A stretch of DNA of 24,000 nucleotides from Candidatus Micrarchaeota archaeon (GCA_021827995.1 JAKATK010000014.1:10888-34887); one strand, 5' to 3'; counted from the first letter of the stretch, positions 4,694 to 21,444 are shown. The notes: a model not told the origin generated them from the sequence alone. Numbers and translations are program-made.

Positions 4694-5386
4694 ATGGCCT
4701 CTAGCGGTGCACTACGCTCGCGTGCCAGCGCACGACCCGGTCGCTATTTCAGGCTCTTGGCAGCGTTGCTGGTCGTGGTCGCTGCATCCACCCTGTACTT
4801 CTCATACGAAGAGGCAGTGCTGCCCACCGGTTCGCCCTGGTTCCCGTCGGCTCTGGCAGGCTCATCCATATCGTTGTCGCTGATGTTGCCGCTCATAGCG
4901 CTCACATACCTGACTTCGAGAGGGCTGCCCCTCGCCGGCGCTCTGCGCAGCCTGGGCCTCGGCAAGGGCAAGCTGTCCATAACCGCCATAGTAACGATAG
5001 GCATAGGCGTCTTCCTGGCCATACTCGGCGTCGAGATAGCGCTGTCGCTTTTCCAGGCCGTGACGAACATAAGCCTGCCAACCAACGTGCAGAGCCTGCT
5101 GCAGGGTCAGGCGCTCTACTATATCGTGTTCGCTGCGCTGATAGGGCCGATAAACGAGGAGATATTCTTCAGGGGCTTCCTAGTCCCAAGGTTCGGAATC
5201 GTCCTTAGCGCCCTGCTCTTCATGATGTTACACAGCGGCTATGCATCGGTAGCAGAACTGATCGGCGCGTTCGTCTTCGGCCTTCTCGCAGGTTACGTGT
5301 TCAAGAGGACCGGTTCGCTCTACACCACGATCATAGGCCACATCCTGGTCAACAGCATGGCGCTGTTCTTCATCATGGCGATCTGA
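4694..5386 (+). CDS. CPBP (CAAX/Abi) family intramembrane metalloprotease
   Basis: Polytopic protein with the family motifs PINEEIFFRGF (EExxxR), MMLHSGY (FxxxH-like) and GHILVNS (HxxxN). Confidence 0.8.
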   Translation: MASSGALRSRASARPGRYFRLLAALLVVVAASTLYFSYEEAVLPTGSPWFPSALAGSSISLSLMLPLIALTYLTSRGLPLAGALRSLGLGKGKLSITAIVTIGIGVFLAILGVEIALSLFQAVTNISLPTNVQSLLQGQALYYIVFAALIGPINEEIFFRGFLVPRFGIVLSALLFMMLHSGYASVAELIGAFVFGLLAGYVFKRTGSLYTTIIGHILVNSMALFFIMAI

Positions 5387-6099
5387 TGCACATGCGCGTC
5401 GTCATGGTCGAGCCCAGGTACCAGATGAACGTCGGTTATGTGGCAAGGGTGGCGGCCAATTTCAGCGCCGAGAGCATAGCCATCGTGAAGCCGCGCTGCA
5501 GTTGCAAGGGCAAGACCGCGACCATGTACTCGAAGCACGCGAGGCCGCTGCTGGAGCGCGCGCGCATATTCGAGACGTTGCGCGAGGCCACAAAGGGCTC
5601 GTTCGTGATGGGCACCACAAGCAACTGGCGCAGGTCCGGTTCGGCCTTCCACAACGCCTTCACGCTTTCGGAATTCATTGCCCGCTTCGGCCCTGGCCTC
5701 ACTGGTCGTCGAGTCTCGGTCGTCCTCGGGAGGGACGACACCGGCCTTACCGCCGAGGAACTGGCCGACTGCGACGCAACCGTAACGATAGAAGCGTGCA
5801 GCTCATACCCTGTGCTAAACATATCGCATGCGCTAGCGGTCATCATGTACACGCTAGGCAGTGTCAAAGGCCGGCAGGAAGAGATGATGGATCATAGGGC
5901 ATCGGAGGCAGCGATAAGCAACCTCGCAAGGCTGTTCGAACGTCACATCGCGTCAAACGCCGACATACGGGACAAGGTGGCGGTAGCGATGGCGTTCAGG
6001 CACGTGATGAGCAGGTCGATGCCCACGCAGGAGGAGCTTGGCGCTATCGCTGCCGCGCTCTCACAAAAAAGGAAACAAGAAAGAATGCTTCGCCGTTAG
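5386..6099 (+). CDS. trmJ: SPOUT-class RNA 2'-O-methyltransferase, TrmJ/LasT-like
   Basis: VMVEPRYQMNVGYVARVAANF, VVLGRDDTGLTAEEL and the knot region YPVLNISHALAVIMY closely parallel bacterial TrmJ. The start overlaps the CPBP stop (TGATG). Confidence 0.75.
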   Translation: MHMRVVMVEPRYQMNVGYVARVAANFSAESIAIVKPRCSCKGKTATMYSKHARPLLERARIFETLREATKGSFVMGTTSNWRRSGSAFHNAFTLSEFIARFGPGLTGRRVSVVLGRDDTGLTAEELADCDATVTIEACSSYPVLNISHALAVIMYTLGSVKGRQEEMMDHRASEAAISNLARLFERHIASNADIRDKVAVAMAFRHVMSRSMPTQEELGAIAAALSQKRKQERMLRR

Positions 6100-6915: not shown

Positions 6916-8048
6916 TGGTGGTTGTTTTGGCCGATATCATTGATGGGGGGTTCGTGGAAAAGGCGCCGACAAAGGCCACTGCGGATGTCGCCAGCGAGGA
7001 GACACCTGCTACAGTATCAGAGCCAGAAATAAACGAGAACGTTGACCAGGAGCGCTTCGCGGCCTTCAGGTTGTACGTCGAAGGGCAGATACGCACCACG
7101 CTGGACAGGTTACGGCCGCTATACAAGGATGCCCATGAGTCTATGCTGGGCAAGGACGCGATGATGACAGAGTTGAGGATGCCAAAGATAGTCGTATCGC
7201 AGTTCGAGAATCCAGGCGACCTATCCACACTTGCGCAAGCCGACTTCTCGTCCAACACGATAACCGTATTCCTGCCGCAGTTCAAGGAATTCTCCGATAT
7301 GCAGGACTCCAAGAGCGATAAAACGCGCGCCGACCTCAGGGCCAGCATCGAGACCACCCTAGGGCACGAGCTAGGTCACATGCTTATAGACCGCCTAATA
7401 TTCGATGCACGCATCAGCGGGAGGTACAACGACCGGTCGCAGTGGCCGCTCTCCTTCGTCTACGAGGGCAGCGGCAAGAGGATGCAGGAGGCTCTCGCCC
7501 AGGTCATCGGCACGTACGTGCATCTGTCGCTTGAGGGCCGCGAGACGGACTGCGCCTCCATCGCCGAGAATATGCTTGGCAAGCTCGCTAGCTCCTTCGA
7601 CGGTTGCGCAAGGTACCACAAGAACTTCATCGACCATTACGATGCAGAGATAAGGGACATGGGCATCGACGTCCTGCGCGACCGCCACGTCAAGGAGCCT
7701 ACTGACGAGGAGATAAAGCTTGCCGGGCTGGAGCGTTTCAAGGAGACCTGTGCATGCCAGACCAACTGGTACCTAGTCTACGGACTGCCGCGTGCCGGCC
7801 TTGCGTCGGCCATGGTGGAGCGCGGCAGCAGCAGCCTGGCCTCATTCATAAGCGATGCGTTGCTTAAGCCGGAGAGCCTCGGTCCTGCGATCAGCAACGA
7901 GATAATGGACGGTGACAACCACGTCGAGAGGTTGGACGCGGAACTGGGCAACGCGACGCTGGCAGCCAAGAACGAGATATTGTACAAGCGGTTCCTGGCC
8001 GCGAAGGAACTGCCCGCTGTCAAGCGTGCGCGCGCCGCCTCGTCCTGA
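6915..8048 (+). CDS. Hypothetical protein with HExxH...E (gluzincin-like) metallopeptidase signature (module A)
   Basis: 377 aa. TTLGHELGHMLIDRL is followed 36 residues later by RMQEALAQVIGTY. The HELGH context recalls ImmA/IrrE (M78)-type or MA-clan peptidases. An acidic, low-complexity N-terminus precedes it. ATG 6915 overlaps the TRAM-like stop TGA 6913-6915. Genome-typical ATA/AGG codon usage supports coding. I did not recognise a family. Confidence 0.55.
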   Translation: MVVVLADIIDGGFVEKAPTKATADVASEETPATVSEPEINENVDQERFAAFRLYVEGQIRTTLDRLRPLYKDAHESMLGKDAMMTELRMPKIVVSQFENPGDLSTLAQADFSSNTITVFLPQFKEFSDMQDSKSDKTRADLRASIETTLGHELGHMLIDRLIFDARISGRYNDRSQWPLSFVYEGSGKRMQEALAQVIGTYVHLSLEGRETDCASIAENMLGKLASSFDGCARYHKNFIDHYDAEIRDMGIDVLRDRHVKEPTDEEIKLAGLERFKETCACQTNWYLVYGLPRAGLASAMVERGSSSLASFISDALLKPESLGPAISNEIMDGDNHVERLDAELGNATLAAKNEILYKRFLAAKELPAVKRARAASS

Positions 8049-8061
8049 GCTGCGCAGCGCC

Positions 8062-8544
8062 TTACAGCATCTTAGCGTGTATGTTCGTTATCGGCCTGAA
8101 CCCCTGCTTCGCGTAGAACTCCACAGATATCCGGTTCTGCGATGGGAACTCTGCAGACACTAGGTGTATGCCGCGCTGCTTGAGCTTGCCGAGGGCGTGG
8201 CGCATGAGCTCAGTGCCTATCTCATGCTTCCTGAATTCCGGCATTATGTAGAACTCCTGCACCCTCCCCTCTGTGCCTGGCTCGTTGAAGATGCGGTCGA
8301 GTATCTCGACCTTAACGAAGCCCATGACCCTGCCCTCACGCTCGGCCACTATTATGATCGAGTCCCTGTCCTTAAGCGCATTGGTCACGTAAGCCTTCGC
8401 CTGCTCCCTCACGTCGTCCCTGACCTTGAGCATTGTGTCGAACTCCTCGTTTAGCCTCTTGAGCCTGACGACAAGATCCGTGACGGCATCTGCGTCGCCC
8501 TTGCGCGCGTCCCTGAACTTTACTCCGGCGTCTATCTTGGCCAT
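8062..8544 (-). CDS. GNAT family N-acetyltransferase
   Basis: 160 aa. Acetyl-CoA binding region EFYIMPEFRKHEIGTELMRHALGKLKQRG (R/Q-x-x-G-x-G/A-like) and C-terminal FYAKQGF. Confidence 0.8.
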   Translation of the reverse strand: MAKIDAGVKFRDARKGDADAVTDLVVRLKRLNEEFDTMLKVRDDVREQAKAYVTNALKDRDSIIIVAEREGRVMGFVKVEILDRIFNEPGTEGRVQEFYIMPEFRKHEIGTELMRHALGKLKQRGIHLVSAEFPSQNRISVEFYAKQGFRPITNIHAKML

Positions 8545-8562
8545 CGAAACACCACATAAGCA

Positions 8563-9894
8563 TTATGGCGGCATCCTAATTAATTTGTTCTTTACGAGCG
8601 TCGCGAGCGTGGACCTGCTCTCCTTTATTATGAAGTCCGCGCGCCTGTGGAACCAGGCCTTGGACATCCGCCTCTTCGCTACGTGCTGCTCTACTGCGCG
8701 CGCGGCCACTACCGCGGCCACCGCAGGATAAACGTCCCACTCGCTCATGTCCGGCAGTATGTGGTCCTCGGACAGGCCGTTCTTGGCCGCATACCTGGCC
8801 AGCTCTGTCGATGCCGCCACTATCATCTCGTCGGTTATCCTCGACGCCCTGGCGTCTAGCGCGCCCCTGAACATTGCCGGGAAGATGAGGCTGTTGTTCA
8901 CCTGGTTTGGGAAGTCCGACCTGCCTGTTGCCACTATCCTGGCGCCAGCCCCCTTGGCCTCCCATGGCCAGATCTCCGGTACCGGGTTCGCGAGTGTGAA
9001 TACGATCGAATCGCTGTTCATGGCGCTGATGCAGCCCTTGGGGAACTTGTCCGGACCAGGACCGGCTGCGGCCACCAGGGCGTCGGCGCCCTTGAGCGCA
9101 GCGTCCAGGCCACCCTCAACCCGGTCTGCATTGGTCTTGAGCGCGAGCTCGTACTTCCACGGGTTGTGCAGCTCCAGCTCGTCCAGGTCCTCCCTTTCCG
9201 GGTGCAGCGTGCCCTTCTTGTCGACGAGTATAATGTTGCCTGCCTTGAAGCCGGCTGCCATGAGCACCCTGGCGGTTGCTATGTTGGAGGCACCGGCACC
9301 GAAGAACACGACCCTTGTCTGGCCAACATCCCTGCCGGTAAGCTTCAGCGCGCCGAAGAGCCCAGCCAGCGTAGCGCCGGCAGTTCCCTGCTGGTCGTCG
9401 TGCCATACTGGAACGCTCAGCTTGCCTCGAAGGCTGTCTAGCAGGAAGAAGCATTTCGGCGACTCTATGTCCTCGAGGTTGAAACCTCCGAATGACGGCT
9501 CCAGGGCCTTCACGGTATCGAATATCTTGTTCTGGTCATGCACCCCAAGGGTTATGGGCACTGCGTTGACGCCACCGAGGTACTTGAACATCAGCGCCTT
9601 GCCCTCCATCACCGGCATGGCGGCCTGCGGACCGACGTTGCCGAGGCCGAGCACCCTGGTCCCATCGGTCACTATGGCTATGGTGTTCCACCTGCTCGTG
9701 AGCTCGAACGAAAGGTCGCTGTTGCGCTCGATGGCCTTCGACACCGCGGCCACCCCGGGCGTGTACCAGACAGAGAAGTCCTTCAAGCTGCGCACTGGAA
9801 CGTTTGGCACCACCGATATCTTACCGCCGTAGAACCTGGAGTAGCGTATCGCCAGCCTGTAGTATTTCTCGGTGTCGTGGTTCTTCTTAGGCAT
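8563..9894 (-). CDS. NAD(P)-dependent malic enzyme (oxaloacetate-decarboxylating malate dehydrogenase)
   Basis: VWYTPGVAAVSKAI, AIVTDGTRVLGLGNVG, FGGFNLEDI, HDDQQGTA and the Rossmann FFGAGASNIA motifs. ATG 9894 (MPKKNHD...) is preferred over the upstream track start 9909. Confidence 0.9.
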   Translation of the reverse strand: MPKKNHDTEKYYRLAIRYSRFYGGKISVVPNVPVRSLKDFSVWYTPGVAAVSKAIERNSDLSFELTSRWNTIAIVTDGTRVLGLGNVGPQAAMPVMEGKALMFKYLGGVNAVPITLGVHDQNKIFDTVKALEPSFGGFNLEDIESPKCFFLLDSLRGKLSVPVWHDDQQGTAGATLAGLFGALKLTGRDVGQTRVVFFGAGASNIATARVLMAAGFKAGNIILVDKKGTLHPEREDLDELELHNPWKYELALKTNADRVEGGLDAALKGADALVAAAGPGPDKFPKGCISAMNSDSIVFTLANPVPEIWPWEAKGAGARIVATGRSDFPNQVNNSLIFPAMFRGALDARASRITDEMIVAASTELARYAAKNGLSEDHILPDMSEWDVYPAVAAVVAARAVEQHVAKRRMSKAWFHRRADFIIKESRSTLATLVKNKLIRMPP

Positions 9895-10030: not shown

Positions 10031-10414
10031 ATGCACGATGACAGCTATGGCATCAGGAAAAGGAAGCTCATAGAGGGCATTCTCGGTAGCTTCAGGGCCG
10101 GCTTCGTAGTCGTCGAGGGCAAGCATGACGTGGCTACGCTGGCCAGGCTCGGGGTCAGTGCCGTACGCTTGGGCGCCCTGCCAGGCAAGGTCGATGCCAT
10201 CAGGGCAGCAGCTCCGAAATCCACGTTCTATATAGTGATGGACATGGACAGGGGCGGGGCCGACAAGGAGGGCAGGGCAATAAGCTTCCTAACGAGCGTA
10301 GACCAGGCAATAAAGTACGACACCGGAATGGGCCGCAGGTTCCTAAAGGCCCTCGGGATAACATCGGTCGAGCAGGCTTACAAAAGGGTCGAGGAGTTGC
10401 TCGGCACGCAGTAG
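10031..10414 (+). CDS. Small Toprim-domain protein (UPF0292 / RNase M5-like, COG1658-type)
   Basis: 127 aa. Toprim glutamate in VVVEGKHDVATLARLG and the DxD motif in YIVMDMDRGGADKEGR. Confidence 0.7.
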   Translation: MHDDSYGIRKRKLIEGILGSFRAGFVVVEGKHDVATLARLGVSAVRLGALPGKVDAIRAAAPKSTFYIVMDMDRGGADKEGRAISFLTSVDQAIKYDTGMGRRFLKALGITSVEQAYKRVEELLGTQ

Positions 10415-10634
10415 CTGGTCGTAGTTCTCGCCGCTTACCTGCATGTGTCCACCGTTTGCCGCATCTGCGCTGAGTTGCGCGAGAAGTGGTCGAGGGGCGC
10501 TTCCAGCGCGGTCAGGCGCCGGCGCTATATCTATAAACCTTGCCGTACAATACACTACGAGCAAGTAGGGATGGAAAGAATTCATTCGCTTTTCCTCCTG
10601 TGAACGGTATAGCAATAAAAGAAACGGTGTTAGA

Positions 10635-11969
10635 TTGAAGTCTTTTTCAGAGATGTCATTAAAGCCAGAGCTAGCAGAGGCCATAGGCAGGGTCGGGTTC
10701 ACCGCAGCAACTGAGGTGCAGGAGCGTTCCATACCCTCGATACTCCTGGGCAGGGACGTGATAGTCAGGGCCAAGACCGGTACCGGCAAGACCGCGGCGT
10801 TCATAATCCCTATAATGCAGCGCATAACGCACTCGGGTTCAGTGAGCGCAATAATCATAGTGCCCACCAGGGAGCTGGCGCTGCAGGTGGCCGAGTTCTC
10901 CCGCAAGCTGGGCGAGCACATGCGCCTACGCACCACCACGGTCTACGGCGGCGCGTCGATAAACGTGCAGACGAGCGAGCTGGAGCGCGGCACCGACATA
11001 GTCGTCGGCACGCCAGGCAGGATAATAGACCTACTGGACCGCGGCGTACTGAGGCTCGATTCCGTGAAGTTCGTGGTGCTGGACGAGGCGGACCGCATGC
11101 TCGACATGGGCTTCATAGAGGACATAGACTACATACTCTACAAGACGCCGATGAAGAGGCAGACGATGCTCTTCTCGGCCACGATGCCGCAGGAGATAGT
11201 CAAGATAGCAAAGCGACACATGGACCAGGGCGTCGAGACTATACTGGTGGGCGAGGACGACGAGCTCGTGGTCTCGACGATCTCGCACAGCTGCGCATTC
11301 GCCAACGGCAACGCCAAGTTCGCCTCGCTGCTCTGGTACATCGACAAGTTCAAGCCCAAGAAGTGCATAGTATTCTCGCGCACGCAGCGCTGGGCCGAGC
11401 TGATACACGACGTTCTAAGGAACAACGGCTACAACGCCGTGCTGCTGCACGGCGGCCTGACGCAAGCGGTGCGGGAGAGGTCCCTGAGCCACTTCAGGCA
11501 TGCCGGCGAGATACTCGTTGCCACTAACATAGCATCGAGGGGTCTCGATATAAACGACGTCACCGACATAGTTAACTTCGATACGCCTGAGACCTCTTAC
11601 GACTACATCCACAGGGTGGGCAGGTCCGCTAGGATGGGCAAGGAGGGCAGGGCGTTCACGATCTTCCGCTTCGACGAAAAGTGGATCAAGGATGACATAG
11701 AGTACGGCGCTAACATAAAGTTCGAGGAGCTCAGGCCAGAGCTCAGCAAGTACCCGAACGTAAGGCCACCAGAGCGCGCCAGGGAGCCGTTCGGTGGTCG
11801 CGGCGGTCCTGGCGGCCAGAGATGGCACAGGGGCAACCAGCAGTACGGCCGCGGGGAGCATCGCGATTACCGTGGGGGAAGGTTCCACCGCGGCGGCCAG
11901 CAGCACGGTCATCAGGGGCAGCACGGTCACCAGCAGTACCACAGACCGCAGGCGCAGGCCCAGGCCTAG
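10635..11969 (+). CDS. DEAD-box ATP-dependent RNA helicase with RGG/QH-rich C-terminal tail
   Basis: Q-motif (F...GFTAATEVQ), AKTGTGKT, PTRELA, TPGR, DEAD, SAT, ARGLD, HRVGRSAR. The TTG 10635 start retains the conserved Q-motif Phe; ATG 10653 is the alternative. Confidence 0.9.
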   Translation: MKSFSEMSLKPELAEAIGRVGFTAATEVQERSIPSILLGRDVIVRAKTGTGKTAAFIIPIMQRITHSGSVSAIIIVPTRELALQVAEFSRKLGEHMRLRTTTVYGGASINVQTSELERGTDIVVGTPGRIIDLLDRGVLRLDSVKFVVLDEADRMLDMGFIEDIDYILYKTPMKRQTMLFSATMPQEIVKIAKRHMDQGVETILVGEDDELVVSTISHSCAFANGNAKFASLLWYIDKFKPKKCIVFSRTQRWAELIHDVLRNNGYNAVLLHGGLTQAVRERSLSHFRHAGEILVATNIASRGLDINDVTDIVNFDTPETSYDYIHRVGRSARMGKEGRAFTIFRFDEKWIKDDIEYGANIKFEELRPELSKYPNVRPPERAREPFGGRGGPGGQRWHRGNQQYGRGEHRDYRGGRFHRGGQQHGHQGQHGHQQYHRPQAQAQA

Positions 11970-11971
11970 AG

Positions 11972-13930
11972 TCAGAGGCCCTTCTCGATCGCGTCCATAA
12001 TCTCGTGGGCTAGGAGCTCCTTCGTGCCGTCTACAAGCTTGGACGAGCCATCACGCATCAGTATGTGGGCGCGGTGCCTCGCCTCGGTGACCTGTGAGGA
12101 GTCGTTCAGCACCATGAGGCCGGCGCCGAGCTCCTTCATCCTGTGCCGGCCTGCTTCTATCATCCCCTTGTCGCTCATCATGTACTCCAGCTTGAAGCCG
12201 GCTATGAACAACTTCGGGAACTCTCTCGCTACCCTCTCTATGATCTTCGGAGTTGGCGTGAGCGACAGGTTCCACTTCCCGGTTGACTTTAGCTTGGTAT
12301 GCAGCTTGCTCTCAGGTTCGAAGTCCAGGACCGCGGCCGCGAATATTGCGGCATCGTATGGGCCAGACCTTAACTCCGAGAGGGTAGCGTCCAGCATCTC
12401 CTCAACCGTATTTGCCGCTATAGATCCCACGTACATCGGAACTGGCACCCTGGCTGGCCCAGTTATTACCTTGATCTCGCAGCCGCGCCTGAAGGCCTCC
12501 CTCGCTATGCTCGCGCCAAGCGCCCCGCTCGAGCTGTTCGATATGTACCTGACAGCGTCAAGGTAGTACCTGGTGGGCCCGGAGAGCAGCAGGATCCTCC
12601 TGCCTCTCAGCCTGCCTACGGCCAACTTCCTGTGCACGCTGTCCGAAACCTCGCGTATGCCAGGTATCTTGGCGATGCCCTCATCGATCCTTGGCGCTAT
12701 CACCATCGCGCCGCGCTTCCGCAGCTCCGCCAGGCTCTCCTTAAGCAGCGGATTGTCGTACAGCTTCATGTTCATGGCCGGCACTACTATCAGCTTGTCA
12801 TTGGGGTTGGCCGCGCACAGCGTCGTCACTGCGGTGTCCGCTATTCCAAGCGCAATCTTCCGTATAGTGTTCAGCGTCGCAGGGTAAACCAGTATTGCGT
12901 CGTAATCGGTGAGGTGCTCAGACATGCCGGTCAGGTGCGTGACCACGCCCCTGCCGGTCGCCCACTCCATGAGCGCTGGGCTGACGCCGAACTTCACAGC
13001 GCCATCGGTCATGAAGCACTCTACGTCGCAGCCGCTCCTACGCAGTTCCCTGGCGAGCCTGGGCGCCATTACGCTCGCGACGCTACCTGACATGCACAAC
13101 GCTACGCGCCTGCCAGCCAGCCAGTCGTTCTTCAGCGTCAGTTCGCCACCGGTCGGGTGCTTAGCGAACAGGCTACTGTAGTCCCCGAAGCCGTTAGTGC
13201 ATGGATTGCCTTCGGTGTAGAGAAGCCTGGACCTGCCAGCATCATCAGCGAGCGCGATTATTGTAGACGAGGTCATCTTCCAGTCGCCTGATCCGTGGAA
13301 GCATATCGAGGCGTGGCCCTTCTGTGATACGTGGTCCGCAGCGATAACCCCGATGCGTTTCAGCGCGTCGTCCAGCGACGCGCCTGGGATGCCAGCCGCG
13401 AGTCTCATGGCCCTCTCACTCCTGAGCGCAGAGCCCTTCCTGATCGCAGCGGTGCCAGCCTTGTAGACCGCGCCCTTCCTATGGACGAAGCTGGTTATGA
13501 CGTGGACACCGGCCTCAAGCTCTGTCTTCTGTACACGGCCTTCCTCGTAAAGCACGTGGAAAGCGGAGCGCTTGTCTGCGACCACGAAGTTGCCGCGCTT
13601 ATAGCCCATAGTGACCTCCTTCACAAGATAGTCGACAGCTGTCTTGGCGTCGTCGAACATGTTGAGCAGGTCGAGCATGAGAAGGCCGCGGCTGCGCCTG
13701 AAGTCGGTATCGATACCGGTGTGCTGGTCAGTGACTGCTACGAACAGGCCGCTCTTGTTAGCACCGATCCAGGTGCCGCCGCTCCTCACGTCAATAGGCG
13801 CATAAATCTCGCGCGCGCCCTTTATCCTGCGCGGCGGGTACTCCAGCGTGTCCGAACGCTCGTACCTGTTGTGCATAGCGACTATCTGGAAGCCGTCGAT
13901 TACCCGGTAGAGCAGCACCAGAGTGCACAT
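11972..13930 (-). CDS. coaBC: Tri-domain fusion: N-terminal TANGO2/NRDE-family domain + phosphopantothenoylcysteine decarboxylase (CoaC) + phosphopantothenate-cysteine ligase (CoaB)
   Basis: Uninterrupted 652-aa ORF. Residues 1 to about 256 (nt 13163-13930) show MC start, AMHNRYE (cf. NRDE), GGTWIG, GLFVAVTD, RSRGLL, RGNFVVAD and TSSTIIALAD, collinear with human TANGO2. Residues about 272-435 (nt 12626-13117) are a flavoprotein fold with VALCMSGSVAS, SEHL and VVPAMN. Residues about 441-652 (nt 11975-12610) carry GPTRYYLDAVRYISNSSSG, AAAVLDF and KLHTKLKS, the CoaB signatures. Confidence 0.85.
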   Translation of the reverse strand: MCTLVLLYRVIDGFQIVAMHNRYERSDTLEYPPRRIKGAREIYAPIDVRSGGTWIGANKSGLFVAVTDQHTGIDTDFRRSRGLLMLDLLNMFDDAKTAVDYLVKEVTMGYKRGNFVVADKRSAFHVLYEEGRVQKTELEAGVHVITSFVHRKGAVYKAGTAAIRKGSALRSERAMRLAAGIPGASLDDALKRIGVIAADHVSQKGHASICFHGSGDWKMTSSTIIALADDAGRSRLLYTEGNPCTNGFGDYSSLFAKHPTGGELTLKNDWLAGRRVALCMSGSVASVMAPRLARELRRSGCDVECFMTDGAVKFGVSPALMEWATGRGVVTHLTGMSEHLTDYDAILVYPATLNTIRKIALGIADTAVTTLCAANPNDKLIVVPAMNMKLYDNPLLKESLAELRKRGAMVIAPRIDEGIAKIPGIREVSDSVHRKLAVGRLRGRRILLLSGPTRYYLDAVRYISNSSSGALGASIAREAFRRGCEIKVITGPARVPVPMYVGSIAANTVEEMLDATLSELRSGPYDAAIFAAAVLDFEPESKLHTKLKSTGKWNLSLTPTPKIIERVAREFPKLFIAGFKLEYMMSDKGMIEAGRHRMKELGAGLMVLNDSSQVTEARHRAHILMRDGSSKLVDGTKELLAHEIMDAIEKGL

Positions 13931-13960
13931 GCACGCACCTACATTCGCTATGGTTTGCTG

Positions 13961-15889
13961 CTAGACAAAATTTAAGCTTGCGCCAGGCATGGAACCGTTG
14001 GGCGGGTATGCTCTAGTGCGTATCCAGTAGAACGTGACACTGCCACCGGAGCTTATGAATAAGCAGAGATACGATGGACCGATGTTAGGTATGTCATTTG
14101 AAGACGTAAGCTGGTTGCCGTAGTTATAATAACCATTGAGGTCTGTCTGGGACTGCCATGAGAGCGTGACTGTTATCGGGTAGCTGTAGGAACTGCCGGA
14201 TACCTGATTCGTGTTGCCGTTTGATATGGTTGGAAACTCTACCCACTGGTGCAGGCCGGAGGTAACGCCGTCAACCCATCCCCACCAACCGGAACAGCAG
14301 CCAGATGGCGTTTGCGTGTTCCAACCCAGCAGCTCGTCATGGCCATCGTATTGCGCCGTACCAGTATAGAAGTACGCGTCTGCCATCAGACCGGCGGGAG
14401 AGAGCCGGGTGGCGTAGTAGAAGAATATAGAGCCGCCGTTGCCAGTCAACGTTAAGCCGTTGTTGATGCTCTCGCCACCGCCATTGGCGCTGTAAGTCCA
14501 ACCTGACGGTACGGAAGAACCAGAGAAATCGGTGTAGACATTGAACACGTTTGCGCCGTTGTCGTACTGCGCGTATCTGGGACTTAGCTGCGGCGCCTCG
14601 CCTGCGATGGGCACGTCGAACTCCGTGCTTAACGGCTCGAACACCATGTATATCGTGTTTCCGGGCGCCGTCTGGGTTTCTCCGTTCGGCAGCTTTACCC
14701 AGAAGATCGCCTGCGACGACGATTGGTTGCTACACGCGGTCTCGGGGCAGCCCTCGAGCCACGAGGCCAGCGGCCCAGACGGGACGCCGTTCGTGAGCGA
14801 GGAGTAGAACCTTATGTTGCCCAGGTCGCCGCTCTCATAAGATGAATACGAAGAGGGGTTGAAAGTGATTTCCTGCTGGAACGTGCCTGATATCGTGCTG
14901 CCAGGATTGAGCGTTATCTGCACGTAAGGCGATGTCACTGTGAGCGTATACACGGCATTGCTCGTGGCACCGGTGAGCGCATTGGTGCCTGTCACCGTGA
15001 TCTGGTAACTGCCCGGCTGCGCCGACGCGGTGGTGTTTATCGATAGGATGCTGTTGCACGTAGGATCAGGCGTGCACGACAACGGGCTGAACGCCTTCGT
15101 TATAGTGGGCGGCGCGGTATCAGATAGCGTCACTACGTTGGCGTTGTTGGATATTGGTGTAGTAATCGTCACCAACGCGTTGGTCGACTGGCCTGCCGCG
15201 ATCGTGTTGCTGGTAGGGCTCACCGATACGGTGAAGCTGAACTGCCGCGCCGGTGGCGGTGCTGGCGGAGGCGAGGAAGATCCGGAACCTCCGCCGAAAT
15301 AGCCGCCGAACGATGCGCTGTTGGTACCCGCCTCCTTCGCCGTTATCGTAGCAACCTTCGAGTATGCCGTCGGGGCCGAGCACGGGCTCAGGCAGTAGCC
15401 CAGCCAGACGTAACCCGCGAACGGCGTCCCTATCGGAGCGTTCGCAGGTATCTGGCCGTACGCGAACTTGCTGGCGTTGAAGTCTGCGCCGACCGTTTGG
15501 CCCGGAAGTAGGTTGCCTATGAAGAGCGCCTTTGAAAGGTCGTTGGCCGTGAAGTTCTGCGGTACGCCCATACTGTTTAGCGGTTCGCCATCCGCGGCCA
15601 TGAACATAAAGGAATCGAAGTATTCCCTGCCCGTCGTCTGGCCGAATGTTATGCCTATACCGTTGGCGGTGTATACCAGGCTCTTGCAGACGAAGCCTGC
15701 TTGGGCGATGCAGGCCTGCGGTGCCAGGTTCGAGCCGTTGAAGACGCCGAGTTCGAAGAGCGCAGCTAGCACTACTGCTATGATCAGTATGGCCCATCCG
15801 TAGGTCATCAAGTACTCCATGGCTGACTGTGCTTTACTCCCGATCTTTTTGGCGATGGTACGCTGCGACTGCATGTGAATACTAACCAT
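13961..15889 (-). CDS. Large secreted/surface protein with archaeal class III (prepilin-type) signal peptide, beta-sandwich, DUF2341-like and lectin-like domains
   Basis: N-terminus ...KKIGSKA/QSAMEYLMTYGWAILIIAVVLAALF carries the Q-x-x-x-E-Y-L plus hydrophobic helix motif. It is followed by the Pro-rich linker GSGSSSPPPAPPPA, an S/T/N-rich beta-sandwich (GSYQITVTGT...YTLTVT), a DUF2341-like segment (GNIRFYSS...ASWLEGC...AIFWVKLPNG...IYMVF) and a W/G/Y-rich C-terminal lectin-like region. ATG 15874 (MQSQR...) is an alternative, possibly leaderless, start behind the TATA-like TTTAAATT at about 15897-15904. Confidence 0.75.
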   Translation of the reverse strand: MVSIHMQSQRTIAKKIGSKAQSAMEYLMTYGWAILIIAVVLAALFELGVFNGSNLAPQACIAQAGFVCKSLVYTANGIGITFGQTTGREYFDSFMFMAADGEPLNSMGVPQNFTANDLSKALFIGNLLPGQTVGADFNASKFAYGQIPANAPIGTPFAGYVWLGYCLSPCSAPTAYSKVATITAKEAGTNSASFGGYFGGGSGSSSPPPAPPPARQFSFTVSVSPTSNTIAAGQSTNALVTITTPISNNANVVTLSDTAPPTITKAFSPLSCTPDPTCNSILSINTTASAQPGSYQITVTGTNALTGATSNAVYTLTVTSPYVQITLNPGSTISGTFQQEITFNPSSYSSYESGDLGNIRFYSSLTNGVPSGPLASWLEGCPETACSNQSSSQAIFWVKLPNGETQTAPGNTIYMVFEPLSTEFDVPIAGEAPQLSPRYAQYDNGANVFNVYTDFSGSSVPSGWTYSANGGGESINNGLTLTGNGGSIFFYYATRLSPAGLMADAYFYTGTAQYDGHDELLGWNTQTPSGCCSGWWGWVDGVTSGLHQWVEFPTISNGNTNQVSGSSYSYPITVTLSWQSQTDLNGYYNYGNQLTSSNDIPNIGPSYLCLFISSGGSVTFYWIRTRAYPPNGSMPGASLNFV

Positions 15890-18077: not shown

Positions 18078-18157
18078 AAACAAGGCCGCGTGCTGTCGTT
18101 TAGAATTTTCGCTTCGCGCTGCGGCGAAACCACGCTACGACGTCAGATCTCTAAACT

Positions 18158-18167
18158 GATAAATATC
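18158..18167 (+). promoter_or_regulatory. Candidate TATA box (GATAAATATC) for the DapA-like/UbiD/UbiA operon
   Basis: Only A/T-rich box in the 132-nt gap after the EamA gene, about 45 nt upstream of ATG 18210. Confidence 0.3.
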
Positions 18168-18209
18168 TTGCGTGGCATAAGATATCACTGCATCTATCTG
18201 GGTCTTTTC

Positions 18210-19196
18210 ATGGAGTATACAAAGAGCGAAGCCAAAGCTTGGGCCCGCGAAAAGCTCGTGGGGCAGTGGACCACAATGGTCACACCGTTCACTAAGGACG
18301 ACCGGCTGGACGAGGCCGGACTAAAGCGTAACGTAGAGCATGTGCTCTCGCTCGGCACCAAGGGTCTCGGCTTCTCGTGGAACATGGGCGAGTTCTGGAG
18401 CCTGACCCGCGAGGAGCGGCTAAGGCTCATGGACATCGTACCAGAACTGGTCAATGGCAGGGCGATGACAGCCTTCCAGGTTACGAGCACCTCGCTCAAC
18501 GAGGTGATCGAGCTCTCTGAAAGAGCCAGGCAGCGCGGGTTTGATTTCGTAATAGTCGCTGCACCGTTCATAATGACAAAGACAGAGGAGCAAGTCATTG
18601 ACTTCGTCAGGCGCGTCTCTGAGCGCACCGATATCGGCATAGCATTCTACAACTCCCCCCAGTTCGGCATAACAATTTCTGCAAAGGGTCTCTCGCGCAT
18701 TGCCGACATACCAAGCGTCATCGCGATAAAGGAGGCGAGCTTCAACACGCAGATATCGATAGACACGCACCTGCTGGCAGGAGGCAAGGCGGTAGTTAGC
18801 GTGCCTGACGAGGAGATATTCCTGTACGAGCAGTACTACGGCTTCCACCAGCAGGTCATGTTCGCCAACACCAGCGACTGGCGCTTTGACACGAAGAGCA
18901 GGCACGAGTACGTCAAGTTCATAGACGCAGCTACGACTGGCAACCAAGAGAAGGCACGTGATTTATACGAGAAGGTGAAGCCGATAAAGATGGTTTCTAG
19001 AAAATGGTGGTCGCAGACCGCGGCGAAGACTGGCGGCGCCCTGCCCGTGCAGATGGTGAAGTGCTGGGGCGAGCTGATGGGCATGGCAGGTGGTGCCGTG
19101 AGGCCGCCGGTGATACCGTTCTCAGAGGAAGACAGGGCCGCGCTCAAGGAAGACCTGGCAAGGCTCGGCCTCGTGGAACAATCGGTCATAGAATGA
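18210..19196 (+). CDS. DapA/NAL-family class I (Schiff-base) aldolase-type enzyme
   Basis: Family motifs MVTPF, SWNMGEFWSLTREER (GxxGE), FYNSP (catalytic Tyr) and IAIKEAS (Schiff-base Lys). ATG 18210 (MEYTKSE) is preferred; the track extension from 18090 is Arg/Cys/Ile-rich and covers the promoter region. Confidence 0.85.
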   Translation: MEYTKSEAKAWAREKLVGQWTTMVTPFTKDDRLDEAGLKRNVEHVLSLGTKGLGFSWNMGEFWSLTREERLRLMDIVPELVNGRAMTAFQVTSTSLNEVIELSERARQRGFDFVIVAAPFIMTKTEEQVIDFVRRVSERTDIGIAFYNSPQFGITISAKGLSRIADIPSVIAIKEASFNTQISIDTHLLAGGKAVVSVPDEEIFLYEQYYGFHQQVMFANTSDWRFDTKSRHEYVKFIDAATTGNQEKARDLYEKVKPIKMVSRKWWSQTAAKTGGALPVQMVKCWGELMGMAGGAVRPPVIPFSEEDRAALKEDLARLGLVEQSVIE

Positions 19197-20602
19197 TAGC
19201 TGACCTTAGGGGATACCTGGGCTATTTGTCTTCTAAGAGCAGGCTCGTTGAGGTGTCTGAAAGGGTCAGCACCGACCTGGAGATATCGGCCATGACAAGC
19301 ATAGCCGGCAAGGAATCCCCCCACCACAGCAAATCGCTACTATTCAAGAACGTTGAAGGCTACGATATGCCCGTGGCTACGAACCTGTTCGGTTCGGTCG
19401 ACACAATCAGCGAACTCTTCAGCGATGCGCGCATACCAGAATTGATCACCGGTATAATGCACCCGAAGGGAGGAGCGGGCAACATGCTGAGAGGCGCGAA
19501 GGTGCTCATAGACTCGATGCCGAAGGTAGCGGGCTTCAGCAGCAGGAACTATGACAGGTTAAGCAGCCTGGACGAGCTGCCTATAATAAAGGCATGGCCG
19601 AAAGATGCCGGCAGGTTCATAACCTTGCCGTTGGTGATAACCAAGGGCCAGGACGGCTCTACGAACGTCGGCATTTACCGCATGCAGGTCTTCGATGACA
19701 TGACCACAGGCATGCACTGGCAGGCGCAGAAGGGCGGCGCGATACATGCCCACGATGCGCGGCAGGCAGGCAAGACCATGCCAGTGTCTGTTACGATAGG
19801 CACGGACCCGTTCAACATGGTATCGGCTGCCACGCCGCTGCCGCAGGGCATAAACGAGTTCGCCTTCGCAGGAATGGCCAGGCGCTCCCGCACGCAGCTC
19901 GTCAAGAACGGTGACTACCCACCTGTGCCAGCGAACTCAGAGATAATCCTGTACGGCGAGGTCGACCCGTCGGAGAAGCGCGTCGAGGGGCCGTTCGGCG
20001 ACCACACCGGCTATTACTCTATACCGGAGCCTGCAAACGTGTTCCACATAAAGGAGATATACGCCAAGAAGAATGCCGTCTACGCCGCCAGCGTAGTCGG
20101 GCACCCGTGGCACGAGGACGCGTCGATAGGCCTGTTCATGATGGACTACCTAAAGCCAATGGTGAGCATGGTCAACGACAGCATAACCGACATCTACCTG
20201 CCGCCAGAGGGCCTGTTCACGCACGTCTGCTTCATAAAGGTCAACAAGAGGTTCCCGGGAGAGGCCAGGAAGGCGATGTTCACAGTGCTCGGTCTTGGCC
20301 AGCTCTCGTTCGTCAAGATGGTCGTCGCATTCGACGATGACATAGACATAAGGGATTACGGCAGCGTGCTGTGGGCCATGGCCAGCAGGGTCGAGCCTGG
20401 GCGTGACATACAGATAATAAATGGCGCGCCGACGGACACGCTCGATCACACGGCCAATATGCCCGCATATGGCTCGAAGGTGCTAATAGACGCAACCAAG
20501 AAGAGCGCCGGCGAGGGCTACGCCAGGGAGTGGCCCGACACCATAGCTATGACCAAGGAAGTGCTGGAATCTGCGGAGAGAAAATGGCGAAAGTCAAGAT
20601 AG
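19193..20602 (+). CDS. UbiD-family (prFMN-dependent) decarboxylase
   Basis: MIADLRGYLGYL..., ITLPLVITK, GIYRMQV and EGPFGDHTGYYS signatures. ATG 19193 overlaps the upstream TGA (ATGA). Confidence 0.9.
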   Translation: MIADLRGYLGYLSSKSRLVEVSERVSTDLEISAMTSIAGKESPHHSKSLLFKNVEGYDMPVATNLFGSVDTISELFSDARIPELITGIMHPKGGAGNMLRGAKVLIDSMPKVAGFSSRNYDRLSSLDELPIIKAWPKDAGRFITLPLVITKGQDGSTNVGIYRMQVFDDMTTGMHWQAQKGGAIHAHDARQAGKTMPVSVTIGTDPFNMVSAATPLPQGINEFAFAGMARRSRTQLVKNGDYPPVPANSEIILYGEVDPSEKRVEGPFGDHTGYYSIPEPANVFHIKEIYAKKNAVYAASVVGHPWHEDASIGLFMMDYLKPMVSMVNDSITDIYLPPEGLFTHVCFIKVNKRFPGEARKAMFTVLGLGQLSFVKMVVAFDDDIDIRDYGSVLWAMASRVEPGRDIQIINGAPTDTLDHTANMPAYGSKVLIDATKKSAGEGYAREWPDTIAMTKEVLESAERKWRKSR

Positions 20603-21444
20603 CCGCTGTGCTGGCCGGTCTGTTCAGGCCCTGGCTTATCGCGTACAACCTGTCGTTCGTCTACATAGGCGTGCTCTTCGCGCATGGCATAACGCTCTAC
20701 GCCTTCGCGCTCGTCACCATCGCATTCATGGCCGCACGGCTGTCCGCGCTGCTGATGAACAGGTACGTGGACCGCGAACTGGACCTGAGGAACCCGAAGA
20801 AGCGGCACAGCGATCCAAGCCTCGCCGTACCAAGGAACACGCTACTGTACGCGTTCGCGCTTTTATCCGCGCTGTTCGTTTTCTGCGCGTACCTTCTCAA
20901 CACGCTGGCGCTGCTCCTGTCGCCAATCGTTATTGCGCTCTTCATCATAGACCCGATGCTCAAAACCAGGACTAGCAGCAGGCACTTCAGCGTTGGCGCG
21001 ATAGAGAGCATATCGCCTCTAGCCGGTTACATAGGGATAACAGGCACGTTCCCGGCGGCGCTGCCGCTCTACCTCCTTGTCGTCGGCATGATCCTTGTCG
21101 GCGGTGGCTTCGACGCGCTCTACGCCGTAGTCCACGCAGACTTCGACAGGAGCAACGGCATCAAGACCTATGCAGTCAAGTATGGTGTCGACAAGGCGCT
21201 TCGCATATCGATGGTAAGCCACGTGATCGCGATCGCGTTCATTATACTGTTCGCCTTGTCGAGCGGTTCCTTCGCCATCCTGATCGGTTCTATCGGCGCC
21301 TCAGCGATACTGCTATCGGAGCATTCTGGCATCAAGGGTGCCAACGATGCGGATTTCATGAAGCGGTTCAATATCTACAACCCGGCATTGGCCGTCGTAA
21401 TACTGGCTTCTGTGTTCGCATGGTGGTTCATGACGCTCGCATGA
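20584..21444 (+). CDS. UbiA-family aromatic prenyltransferase (UbiD-associated subfamily)
   Basis: About 8-9 TM helices. First Asp-rich motif ARLSALLMNRYVDRELDLRNP (NxxxDxxxD), second in FDALYAVVHADFDRSNG. ATG 20584 lies 19 nt inside the UbiD gene. Confidence 0.85.
   Translation: MAKVKIAAVLAGLFRPWLIAYNLSFVYIGVLFAHGITLYAFALVTIAFMAARLSALLMNRYVDRELDLRNPKKRHSDPSLAVPRNTLLYAFALLSALFVFCAYLLNTLALLLSPIVIALFIIDPMLKTRTSSRHFSVGAIESISPLAGYIGITGTFPAALPLYLLVVGMILVGGGFDALYAVVHADFDRSNGIKTYAVKYGVDKALRISMVSHVIAIAFIILFALSSGSFAILIGSIGASAILLSEHSGIKGANDADFMKRFNIYNPALAVVILASVFAWWFMTLA

Follow-up and report, generated by a model that had tools for sequence, protein, structure and literature searches.

Loss of TANGO2 causes a severe metabolic disease of childhood, and the biochemical function of the protein is not yet settled, with a role in haem trafficking disputed and both acyl-CoA binding and a role as a cysteine-type N-terminal nucleophile (Cys-Ntn) hydrolase proposed (PMC12782551, PMC11867700, PMC13044924). 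The human protein binds CoA and acyl-CoA, and this binding needs its NRDE region (PMC11867700); its crystal structure suggests a Cys-Ntn hydrolase, with a proposed catalytic set of Cys2, Arg26, Asp27, Asn75, Asn157 and Lys166 (PMC13044924). The bifunctional enzyme CoaBC, which makes 4'-phosphopantetheine, is represented by the Mycobacterium smegmatis structure 6tgv, a dodecamer with a CoaC core (PMC7794376). Here we describe a gene in which a TANGO2-family domain and a complete CoaC-CoaB enzyme are joined in one polypeptide. It lies in a stretch of 24,000 nucleotides from a Candidatus Micrarchaeota archaeon (GCA_021827995.1 JAKATK010000014.1:10888-34887), referred to throughout as the window, and all positions are counted from its first nucleotide unless another locus is named.

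Both CoaBC and TANGO2 are known families, and we have found no published description of their fusion; full-text searches of the available library found no paper naming TANGO2 together with CoaBC or describing such a protein. Of the three papers in which TANGO2 and phosphopantothenoylcysteine both occur, PMC11179719 only names the pathway enzymes and gives no sign of a fusion, and the others are, judged by title, a survey of prescribing and a review of transporters. Source databases label the fused proteins simply as CoaBC, and the fusion is visible in precomputed domain tables.

The fused gene and its domains

The gene occupies positions 11972-13930, stop codon included, on the minus strand as a single uninterrupted open reading frame (ORF) of 652 amino acids, and is the sole gene with a DFP domain and the sole gene with a TANGO2 domain in this 1.26-Mb genome. 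It starts with ATG-TGC (Met-Cys), and because the upstream frame is closed by an in-frame stop ten codons to the 5' side with no start codon between, Met1-Cys2 is the only possible N-terminus. It is an intact three-domain gene in which a TANGO2-family Ntn-fold domain is joined to a complete CoaC-CoaB, laid out as follows.

11972..13930, minus strand: whole gene (P0001), a TANGO2-like/CoaC/CoaB fusion of 652 amino acids (ORF, three Pfam domains and NCBIfam coaBC)
13163..13930, minus strand: N-terminal TANGO2-family Ntn-fold domain, residues 1-256 (PF05742, clade profile and AlphaFold2 model)
13925..13927, minus strand: codon of Cys2, the presumed N-terminal nucleophile once Met1 is removed (invariance and structural alignments)
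13859..13870, minus strand: N-R-Y-E, residues 21-24, replacing the family N-R-D-E (alignment to human R26-D27)
13721..13732, minus strand: T-D-Q-H, residues 67-70, replacing the family T-N-R; D68 pairs with human Asn75
13118..13162, minus strand: inter-domain linker, residues 257-271 (15 residues), of low model confidence (predicted local distance difference test, pLDDT)
12611..13117, minus strand: CoaC (phosphopantothenoylcysteine decarboxylase, a flavoprotein), residues 272-440 (PF02441, E338-H339, PAMN 384-387)
11975..12610, minus strand: CoaB (phosphopantothenate-cysteine ligase), residues 441-652 (PF04127)

The Pfam TANGO2 family (PF05742) matches the N-terminal domain with 41.4 bits against a cut-off of 22.6, the alignment being confined to residues 1-147. 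When a profile was built from 68 relatives, fused and stand-alone, it reached the two human TANGO2 crystal chains at E 9e-23, covering positions 12-215; the window protein alone reaches TANGO2 among PDB sequences at E 1.4 only, and the clade profile is thus needed. An AlphaFold2 model of the domain made with the 68-member alignment (pLDDT 95.9, predicted template modelling score (pTM) 0.93) matches the four-layer alpha-beta-beta-alpha fold of the solved TANGO2 structures. Its top PDB fold matches are the bacterial family member CV2077 (3gvz, Z 24.6) and human TANGO2 (9bwa, Z 23.2), with 237-238 residues aligned, and Foldseek gives E values of about 6e-13 to TANGO2-family structures. Because the clade profile and the fold agree, the second half of the domain is accepted as TANGO2-like as well.

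The next fold match is acyl-CoA:isopenicillin N acyltransferase (IAT; Z 22.4), an enzyme for which CoA thioesters serve as acyl donors, and further matches are C69 dipeptidase, N-acylethanolamine acid amidase (NAAA), acid ceramidase, bile salt hydrolases and penicillin V acylase; there is also a weak match to the NCBIfam C45 family (E 1e-3). In IAT, acid ceramidase, NAAA, bile salt hydrolase and penicillin V acylase, the nucleophile is where the structural alignment starts. Residue 2 of the model pairs with the nucleophiles of acid ceramidase (143), bile salt hydrolase (2) and penicillin V acylase (1), residue 1 pairs with IAT residue 102, and Cys2 opens the strand formed by residues 3-11. As modelled, the domain belongs to the TANGO2 family within the Cys-Ntn superfamily, and its Cys occupies the place of the nucleophile.

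The remainder of the protein is matched by Pfam Flavoprotein (PF02441, 72.1 bits, residues 275-415) and DFP (PF04127, 136.6 bits, E 1e-39, residues 441-614), and the NCBIfam coaBC equivalog TIGR00521 scores 268.7 bits against a cut-off of 219.7, with residues 272-648 covering model positions 2-391 of 392. The CoaC domain aligns to M. smegmatis CoaBC (6tgv) and the CoaB domain to structures 5int, 1u7u and 4qji. Among 23 fused proteins there is little or no variation at H339, P384, M386, N387, G451, T453, D458, R461, A532, A533, D536, F537 and K546, and the conserved CoaB motifs GPT.Y.D..R and AA.LDF.P are present together with K546. The CoaC substrate-clamp segment (P-R-I-D-E-G-I-A-K) is short and, like the aligned 6tgv segment, contains no Cys; the clamp of E. 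coli-type CoaC carries a Cys that is used in the reduction step. We also note a 583-residue metagenomic protein (P0030) that consists of CoaBC with an N-terminal class II aldolase/adducin domain (PF00596). In the CoaBC tree it is placed next to the clade of TANGO2 fusions, and it seems that archaeal CoaBC readily gains extra domains at its N-terminus.

Integrity and conservation of the fusion

The domain junction at about 13118-13162 is crossed without an indel by Logan contigs from three other studies, all of mine drainage or tailings metagenomes (X5 record 7, spanning 12284-13246; X3 record 5, 13063-14000; X7 record 18, 13046-13246). Among the 5.8 billion proteins searched, the same trio of Pfam domains occurs in at least 27 protein clusters (42-99% identity, 636-681 amino acids); one, 99% identical to the window protein, represents 15 sequences, and the architecture is found in 26 more. 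The search for longer fused forms scored only 8000 candidates, and other architectures may be missed. The ESM Atlas contains a cluster of 54 archaeal members with the fusion architecture, and intact fused loci are present in eight species-representative genomes. That the ORF is an assembly chimera, or two genes read through by way of a frameshift error, is hardly credible in the face of the bridging contigs, the 27 clusters and the eight intact genomes, even though three related loci are broken: in L019 a split or frameshift falls exactly at the linker, and in L048 and L049 the N-domain is frameshifted.

Both halves of the protein appear to be under constraint. Across 23 aligned fused proteins the conservation of the N-domain is on a par with that of CoaBC; identities within the fused family are 38-54% for the N-domain and 45-60% for CoaBC. 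The population variants in the contigs comprise 6 synonymous and 4 non-synonymous changes in the N-domain, with no stop and no indel, and likewise 6 and 4 in CoaB; these ratios fit purifying selection on both halves, although the numbers are small. The fusion is selectively maintained.

An initial annotation made from the sequence alone had read this ORF as a TANGO2/NRDE domain fused in frame to CoaBC, and most of its description stands. The motifs that it quoted are all there and collinear, with MC, AMHNRYE (18-24), GGTWIG (51-56), GLFVAVTD, RSRGLL, GNFVVAD and TSSTIIALAD followed, in order, by PAMN (384-387), the GPTRYYLD...SSG block and AAAVLDF; the only correction to the single 652-residue ORF is that it lies on the minus strand. 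The domain assignment is borne out by Pfam, NCBIfam, the clade profile and the fold model, with residues 1-256 matching TANGO2/NRDE both by profile and by predicted fold (Z 23-25), and with the CoaC-CoaB portion proposed for residues ~272-652 covered end to end by the coaBC equivalog model. The chimera or frameshift that it had allowed for at the junction can be set aside; the recurrence of the fusion on which it depended was found in clusters and Atlas alike; and the N-terminal placement that it emphasised is general, since the Ntn domain is N-terminal and begins Met-Cys in every fused protein with a complete N-terminus.

Predicted contacts between the domains

In the AlphaFold2 model of the full-length protein the domains are confident (mean pLDDT 86.8) but the pTM is 0.61, and the linker has a pLDDT of 63-67 that falls below 50 at residues 258-263. 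Prediction of a complex between the N-domain and CoaBC gave an interface score (ipSAE) of 0.78, with 0.00 for the best of three controls; the ipSAE mark is reached by 58 of 80 solved complexes and by 2 of 110 mismatched pairs. The complex runs share at least 87% of their contacts, with partner pLDDT of at least 87. The interface comprises residues 29-51, 76-91 and 109 of the N-domain, and on the partner side CoaC residues 273-274, 342, 344, 376, 378 and 405-407, the CoaC-CoaB linker (436-445), and CoaB residues 524 and 526. PDB searches found no solved complex of like kind. The prediction supports, short of proof, an ordered assembly of the N-domain on CoaC and the CoaC-CoaB linker.

The NRY subfamily

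Cys2 is invariant in all 68 aligned family members, as are R22, G52, T53, S80 and G82, and R22 and Y23 are both invariant in the 23 fused proteins. Other parts of the active site depart from the family pattern. Where the NRDE motif has Asp (human D27), the fused clade and its stand-alone sisters carry N-R-Y-E: Tyr is present in 20 of 20 members of this NRY clade, whereas the other 48 members all have D or E. The Asn75 equivalent is D in 85% of the NRY clade and N in 96% of the rest, and position 69 is Q in 100% of the clade and R in 79% of the rest (TDQ versus TNR). At the position of human Asn157 the window protein and its sister have Ser (S147), whereas most of the other fused proteins keep Asn, and the human Lys166 region is not conserved, such that the window protein lacks counterparts of Asn75, Asn157 and Lys166 of the proposed human set (PMC13044924). 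Of the TANGO2-like sequences examined from archaea and bacteria, at least 90% keep motifs of the D-H, C-x-H and P-C types (H200, C210, H212 and C244; about 13199-13332), and human TANGO2 retains the Cys of C-x-H and has Arg at the His position; these four residues could form a metal or redox site.

Judged by alignment, this is a distinct NRY subfamily that is homologous to TANGO2, and the same function is not safely assumed for it. With NRDE changed to NRY and TN to TD, the substrate and the chemistry may therefore differ from those of the human protein.

Evolution of the fused gene

In trees of the CoaBC half all 20 fused proteins fall in a single clade, with Shimodaira-Hasegawa-like approximate likelihood ratio test (SH-aLRT) support of 99, and we therefore regard the fusion as essentially one evolutionary event. 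The only unfused member of this clade, P0029, is nested beside the Micrarchaeota pair. The N-domain tree likewise groups the NRY sequences in one clade (99 SH-aLRT) composed of the fused genes, a large group of stand-alone Bathyarchaeia genes of about 250 codons, and stand-alone Baldrarchaeota genes; its backbone is poorly resolved, and this tree does not separate one fusion with later fissions from several fusions. Five genomes with stand-alone NRY genes encode an unfused CoaBC elsewhere, and these fall outside the fused clade. The simplest reading of these phylogenies would be one fusion in a Bathyarchaeia/Thermoproteota-type ancestor, followed by occasional decay of the kind seen at the three broken loci. 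One stand-alone NRY gene, near-identical to the Bathyarchaeia copies and with the same neighbours, is in a genome labelled Candidatus Krumholzibacteriaceae bacterium (L036), which is probably a mis-binned archaeal contig.

The nearest fused gene is that of another Candidatus Micrarchaeota genome (L009), with 54% identity in the N-domain and 61% in CoaBC. Among 41 related small genomes, most of them more than 90% complete, a DFP domain is present only in the window's genome and in one congener, in both cases in the fused form. A third congener contains a decayed relic (L050 6001-6400 = G001:C16) with about 37 N-terminal codons and a short out-of-frame fragment, and has no DFP domain anywhere, with CoaD kept; this is a recent loss of the acquired module. 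DNA of the window is detected in mine-drainage metagenomes, and we conclude that the fused gene was horizontally acquired by a single acid-mine-drainage Micrarchaeota genus. It represents gain of a CoA-synthesis module by a genome-reduced symbiont lineage, and no CoaBC was found in any other sampled relative.

CoA-pathway genes near the fused loci

In the nearest congener (L009, G003:C21) a bacterial-type CoaD gene (5308-5799, minus strand of that locus; TIGR01510, 179.7 bits) lies about 200 nt upstream of the fused gene and is divergently transcribed, and an acyl-CoA dehydrogenase gene (7937-9196, plus strand) overlaps the 3' end of the fused gene. The CoaD gene of the window's genome is on another contig (L007), beside NreA. 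A bacterial-type CoaD scores above the cut-off in 6 of the 41 related small genomes. In the window's genome, which is 88% complete, searches with PF04019, PF02006, PF01121 and PF03309 found none of phosphopantothenate synthetase (PPS), type III pantothenate kinase (PanK), CoaE and the archaeal DUF359 kinase. These gaps do not prove that the genes are missing, and the searches did not extend to pantoate kinase or to PanK of types I and II. One of the two Bathyarchaeia-type fused-gene loci has acyl-CoA dehydrogenase and thiolase genes 2 kb downstream, and no other CoA-biosynthesis gene was found in either of these two neighbourhoods.

Possible roles of the N-terminal domain

We propose, with a probability of roughly 45%, that the N-domain is a Cys-Ntn hydrolase or acyl-transfer module that acts on a pantetheine- or CoA-type compound and is coupled to CoaBC. 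The choice of substrate class is suggested by four considerations: non-peptide amides are what Ntn enzymes cleave, acyl-CoA is used by IAT, the nearest structural relative that has been characterised, human TANGO2 binds CoA and acyl-CoA (PMC11867700), and fusions retained over long periods usually unite steps of one process. The literature background on which the initial annotation drew is sound, with vitamin B5 responsiveness, CoA and acyl-CoA binding, and the Cys-Ntn hydrolase proposal all to be found in PMC13044924 and PMC11867700. The N-domain, docked on CoaC and the CoaC-CoaB linker as predicted, would attack an amide or thioester of a small molecule carrying a pantetheine or CoA moiety, and the coupling to CoaBC would serve either to supply or recycle the CoaB substrate or to clear off-pathway or damaged derivatives. 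In the most economical concrete version, which is coherent and speculative, an amidase step would cut damaged or modified (phospho)pantetheine at the beta-alanyl-cysteamine amide to give 4'-phosphopantothenate, which CoaB and then CoaC would rebuild with fresh cysteine. Such an amidase would make sense of a genome that encodes CoaBC and CoaD yet has no recognisable way of making phosphopantothenate.

A bolder extension holds that the Ntn domains of the TANGO2 family at large are pantetheine-arm enzymes, and that the fusion unites three steps of CoA repair and salvage in a single chain. The substrates of the N-domain would be derivatives of (phospho)pantetheine or CoA that are damaged, S-modified or acylated, and it would cleave them so that 4'-phosphopantothenate is regenerated, or a thiol is freed, for immediate rebuilding by CoaB and CoaC. 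If the human protein carries out a related reaction, this would account for the stress-triggered, vitamin B5-responsive nature of TANGO2 deficiency. We regard this extension as unlikely.

Several observations weigh against a pantetheine- or CoA-directed activity. We know of no enzymatic data for any member of the TANGO2 family. The replacement of D27 by Tyr, N75 by Asp and N157 by Ser makes catalysis by the canonical mechanism uncertain, and hydrolysis of unmodified phosphopantetheine combined with CoaBC would be a futile cycle. One congeneric genome has lost the fused gene yet kept CoaD. The stand-alone NRY genes of Bathyarchaeia and Baldrarchaeota are not beside CoaBC, and in five genomes their products coexist with an unlinked, unfused CoaBC; the neighbours of these genes do not point to CoA biosynthesis. 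No CoaBC or CoaD was found by tblastn in 80 metagenome loci of stand-alone NRDE-type genes (425 kb), where AAA ATPases are the most frequent neighbours, accounting for 8 of the 59 flanking ORFs, with GFO/IDH/MocA oxidoreductases accounting for four, and no CoA enzymes are among the 25 commonest Pfam families listed for these 59 ORFs. Other TANGO2-like fusions are to a sugar-binding domain and to a metallophosphatase; together with the missing CoA-gene linkage of the stand-alone genes, these speak against a general CoA role across the family. The initial annotation had further argued that the fusion reveals the ancestral NRDE/TANGO2 activity; with a single event inside a derived NRY subfamily, with stand-alone NRY genes apart from CoaBC, and with 80 NRDE-type loci lacking both CoaBC and CoaD, that argument is not supported in this form.

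Among the alternatives, we would take most seriously, while still thinking it unlikely, a regulatory sensor in which an enzyme-derived N-domain binds CoA or acyl-CoA and allosterically throttles CoaBC, giving feedback at steps 2-3. Human TANGO2 binds CoA and C16/C18 acyl-CoA (PMC11867700), M. tuberculosis CoaB is inhibited by CoA and acyl-CoAs, which makes the CoaB step a natural point of control (PMC7794376), and the rigid docking predicted on CoaC and the CoaC-CoaB linker would offer a plausible allosteric route; the clade-wide D to Y and N to D substitutions would then reflect lost or changed catalysis. However, Cys2 and Arg22 are absolutely invariant and the N-terminal place is never violated, which fits a nucleophile better than a mere binding pocket, there are stand-alone NRY proteins without a linked CoaBC, and the acyl-CoA binding of human TANGO2 needs the NRDE motif that is altered here. 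Next in plausibility, and also unlikely, is that the domain is an unrelated passenger with a role outside CoA synthesis, such as the hydrolysis of lipid amides or the handling of haem; its fusion to CoaBC would then be a chance event, preserved by co-expression or structural dependence. A fusion that arose in a single event, stand-alone relatives with no adjacent CoA genes, and the joining of the domain to unrelated partners are all as expected for a passenger, and a haem-trafficking role is claimed for the Shewanella homologue HtpA (PMC10470608). Yet the fusion has been kept down to 42% identity and through horizontal transfer, an ordered interface between the domains is predicted, the literature ties TANGO2 to CoA and acyl-CoA (PMC11867700, PMC13044924), and the haem role is disputed (PMC12782551, PMC13044924).

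Delivery of cysteine in the manner of an amidotransferase, with the N-domain hydrolysing the amide of a cysteine conjugate (e.g. gamma-glutamylcysteine or an N-acyl-cysteine) and passing the released cysteine to the CoaB ligase, seems improbable. The topology is that of PurF, GlmS and AsnB-type enzymes, in which an Ntn domain with an N-terminal Cys precedes a nucleotide-dependent synthetase; the placement at the N-terminus is strictly kept, and the predicted docking on the CoaBC body includes CoaB residues 524 and 526. But the contacts are mostly with CoaC rather than the CoaB active site, the closest folds belong to acyl-amide and acyl-CoA enzymes and not to glutamine amidotransferases, the Pfam scan gave no glutamine amidotransferase match, and unfused CoaBC enzymes take free cysteine.

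We prefer, at the strength given above, a Cys-Ntn module acting on a pantetheine- or CoA-type compound. The fusion ties the NRY subfamily to CoA metabolism without showing the ancestral TANGO2 activity. As a long-conserved union with the enzyme that makes 4'-phosphopantetheine, it offers independent evidence, from genomes, that CoA metabolism is where at least one branch of the family works, and the fused protein is a compact prokaryotic test bed for TANGO2 substrates, of a value tempered by its altered catalytic residues.

Neighbouring genes and other observations

An AAA ATPase gene of about 370-400 codons is often the immediate, divergent upstream neighbour of NRDE-type genes (L068, L069, L070, L080, L084, L114 and others), and the placement of an Ntn-fold protein next to an AAA ATPase recalls proteasome-like pairs; the look-up of the P0093 locus gave short contigs only. 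The Bathyarchaeia stand-alone NRY genes share a conserved neighbourhood (L025, L030, L032, L033, L036, L038, L043 and others), with genes for a CBS-domain protein and a D-2-hydroxyacid dehydrogenase upstream, and a radical SAM or unknown-family protein, a GPN-loop ATPase, or a GNAT-SCP2 acetyltransferase downstream. The other TANGO2-like fusions are P0125 and P0186 (about 410 amino acids), with a GH2-N-like galactose-binding domain, and P0225 (523 amino acids), with a calcineurin-like metallophosphatase domain (PF00149) that is matched weakly (E 2e-7).

The local context in the window is uninformative, with a pilin-like surface protein gene upstream of the fused gene and a convergent DEAD-box helicase gene downstream. 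The former (P0223, 642 amino acids; 13961-15889) is encoded on the same minus strand, and 30 nt separate its end from the fused gene. Its N-terminus resembles that of archaeal type IV pilins, with a QSAMEYL-type signal followed by a hydrophobic helix; Ser, Thr and Pro are abundant in the protein, and neither Pfam nor NCBIfam gives a match. It is probably a surface or adhesion protein of the symbiont. Two ORFs (11415-11942 and 10343-10939) that overlap the helicase gene on the opposite strand are probably not genes. Elsewhere in the window a UbiD-family decarboxylase gene (19004-20602, plus strand), closest to the SCO4490-type menaquinone biosynthesis model though below its cut-off, is followed by a UbiA prenyltransferase gene (20530-21444, plus strand). 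The DHDPS-like ORF upstream of these (18090-19196) extends about 190 nt into the UbiD frame, and the start of one or the other is therefore probably miscalled.

Comparison with known systems

The design of the fused protein is shared with the class II (Ntn/PurF-type) glutamine amidotransferases, in which a Cys-Ntn hydrolase at the extreme N-terminus is likewise joined to a nucleotide-dependent synthetase. By fold ranking, however, the N-domain appears to belong to a different Ntn branch, and CoaB uses cysteine, not ammonia; there is no GATase_2-type Pfam match at E <=0.01 and none among the 50 fold matches listed, and a distant kinship is possible. The best structural match among characterised Ntn enzymes is IAT (C45 family, 2x1c/2x1d; Z 22.4 over 236 residues, 16-18% identity), whose nucleophile Cys103 aligns to Cys2. 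IAT is made as a self-cleaving proenzyme, whereas in the window protein removal of Met would expose the Cys.

Human TANGO2 (8sv7, 9bwa) and CV2077 (3gvz) have the same alpha-beta-beta-alpha Ntn fold as that predicted for the N-domain, and share with it the Met-Cys start, the Arg of the NRDE motif, GGTW.G, (S/G)RG and a GT.S(S/T)T-type strand. Identity to these structures is only 15-18%, with Tyr in place of the NRDE Asp, Asp in place of Asn75 and Ser in place of Asn157, and the archaeal and bacterial clade, unlike human TANGO2, carries the conserved DH, C.H and PC motifs. The window domain also differs from the human protein in being covalently joined to CoaBC and in having no mitochondrial targeting. 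Residues 272-652 resemble CoaBC/Dfp of E. coli and M. smegmatis (6tgv) over both domains, including PAMN and the CoaB nucleotide-binding motifs; the CoaC clamp segment is shorter, with a conserved E-G-x-A-K where 6tgv has a G-x-G-R-type segment, and, unlike 6tgv, the window protein begins with an additional N-terminal Ntn domain of 256 residues.

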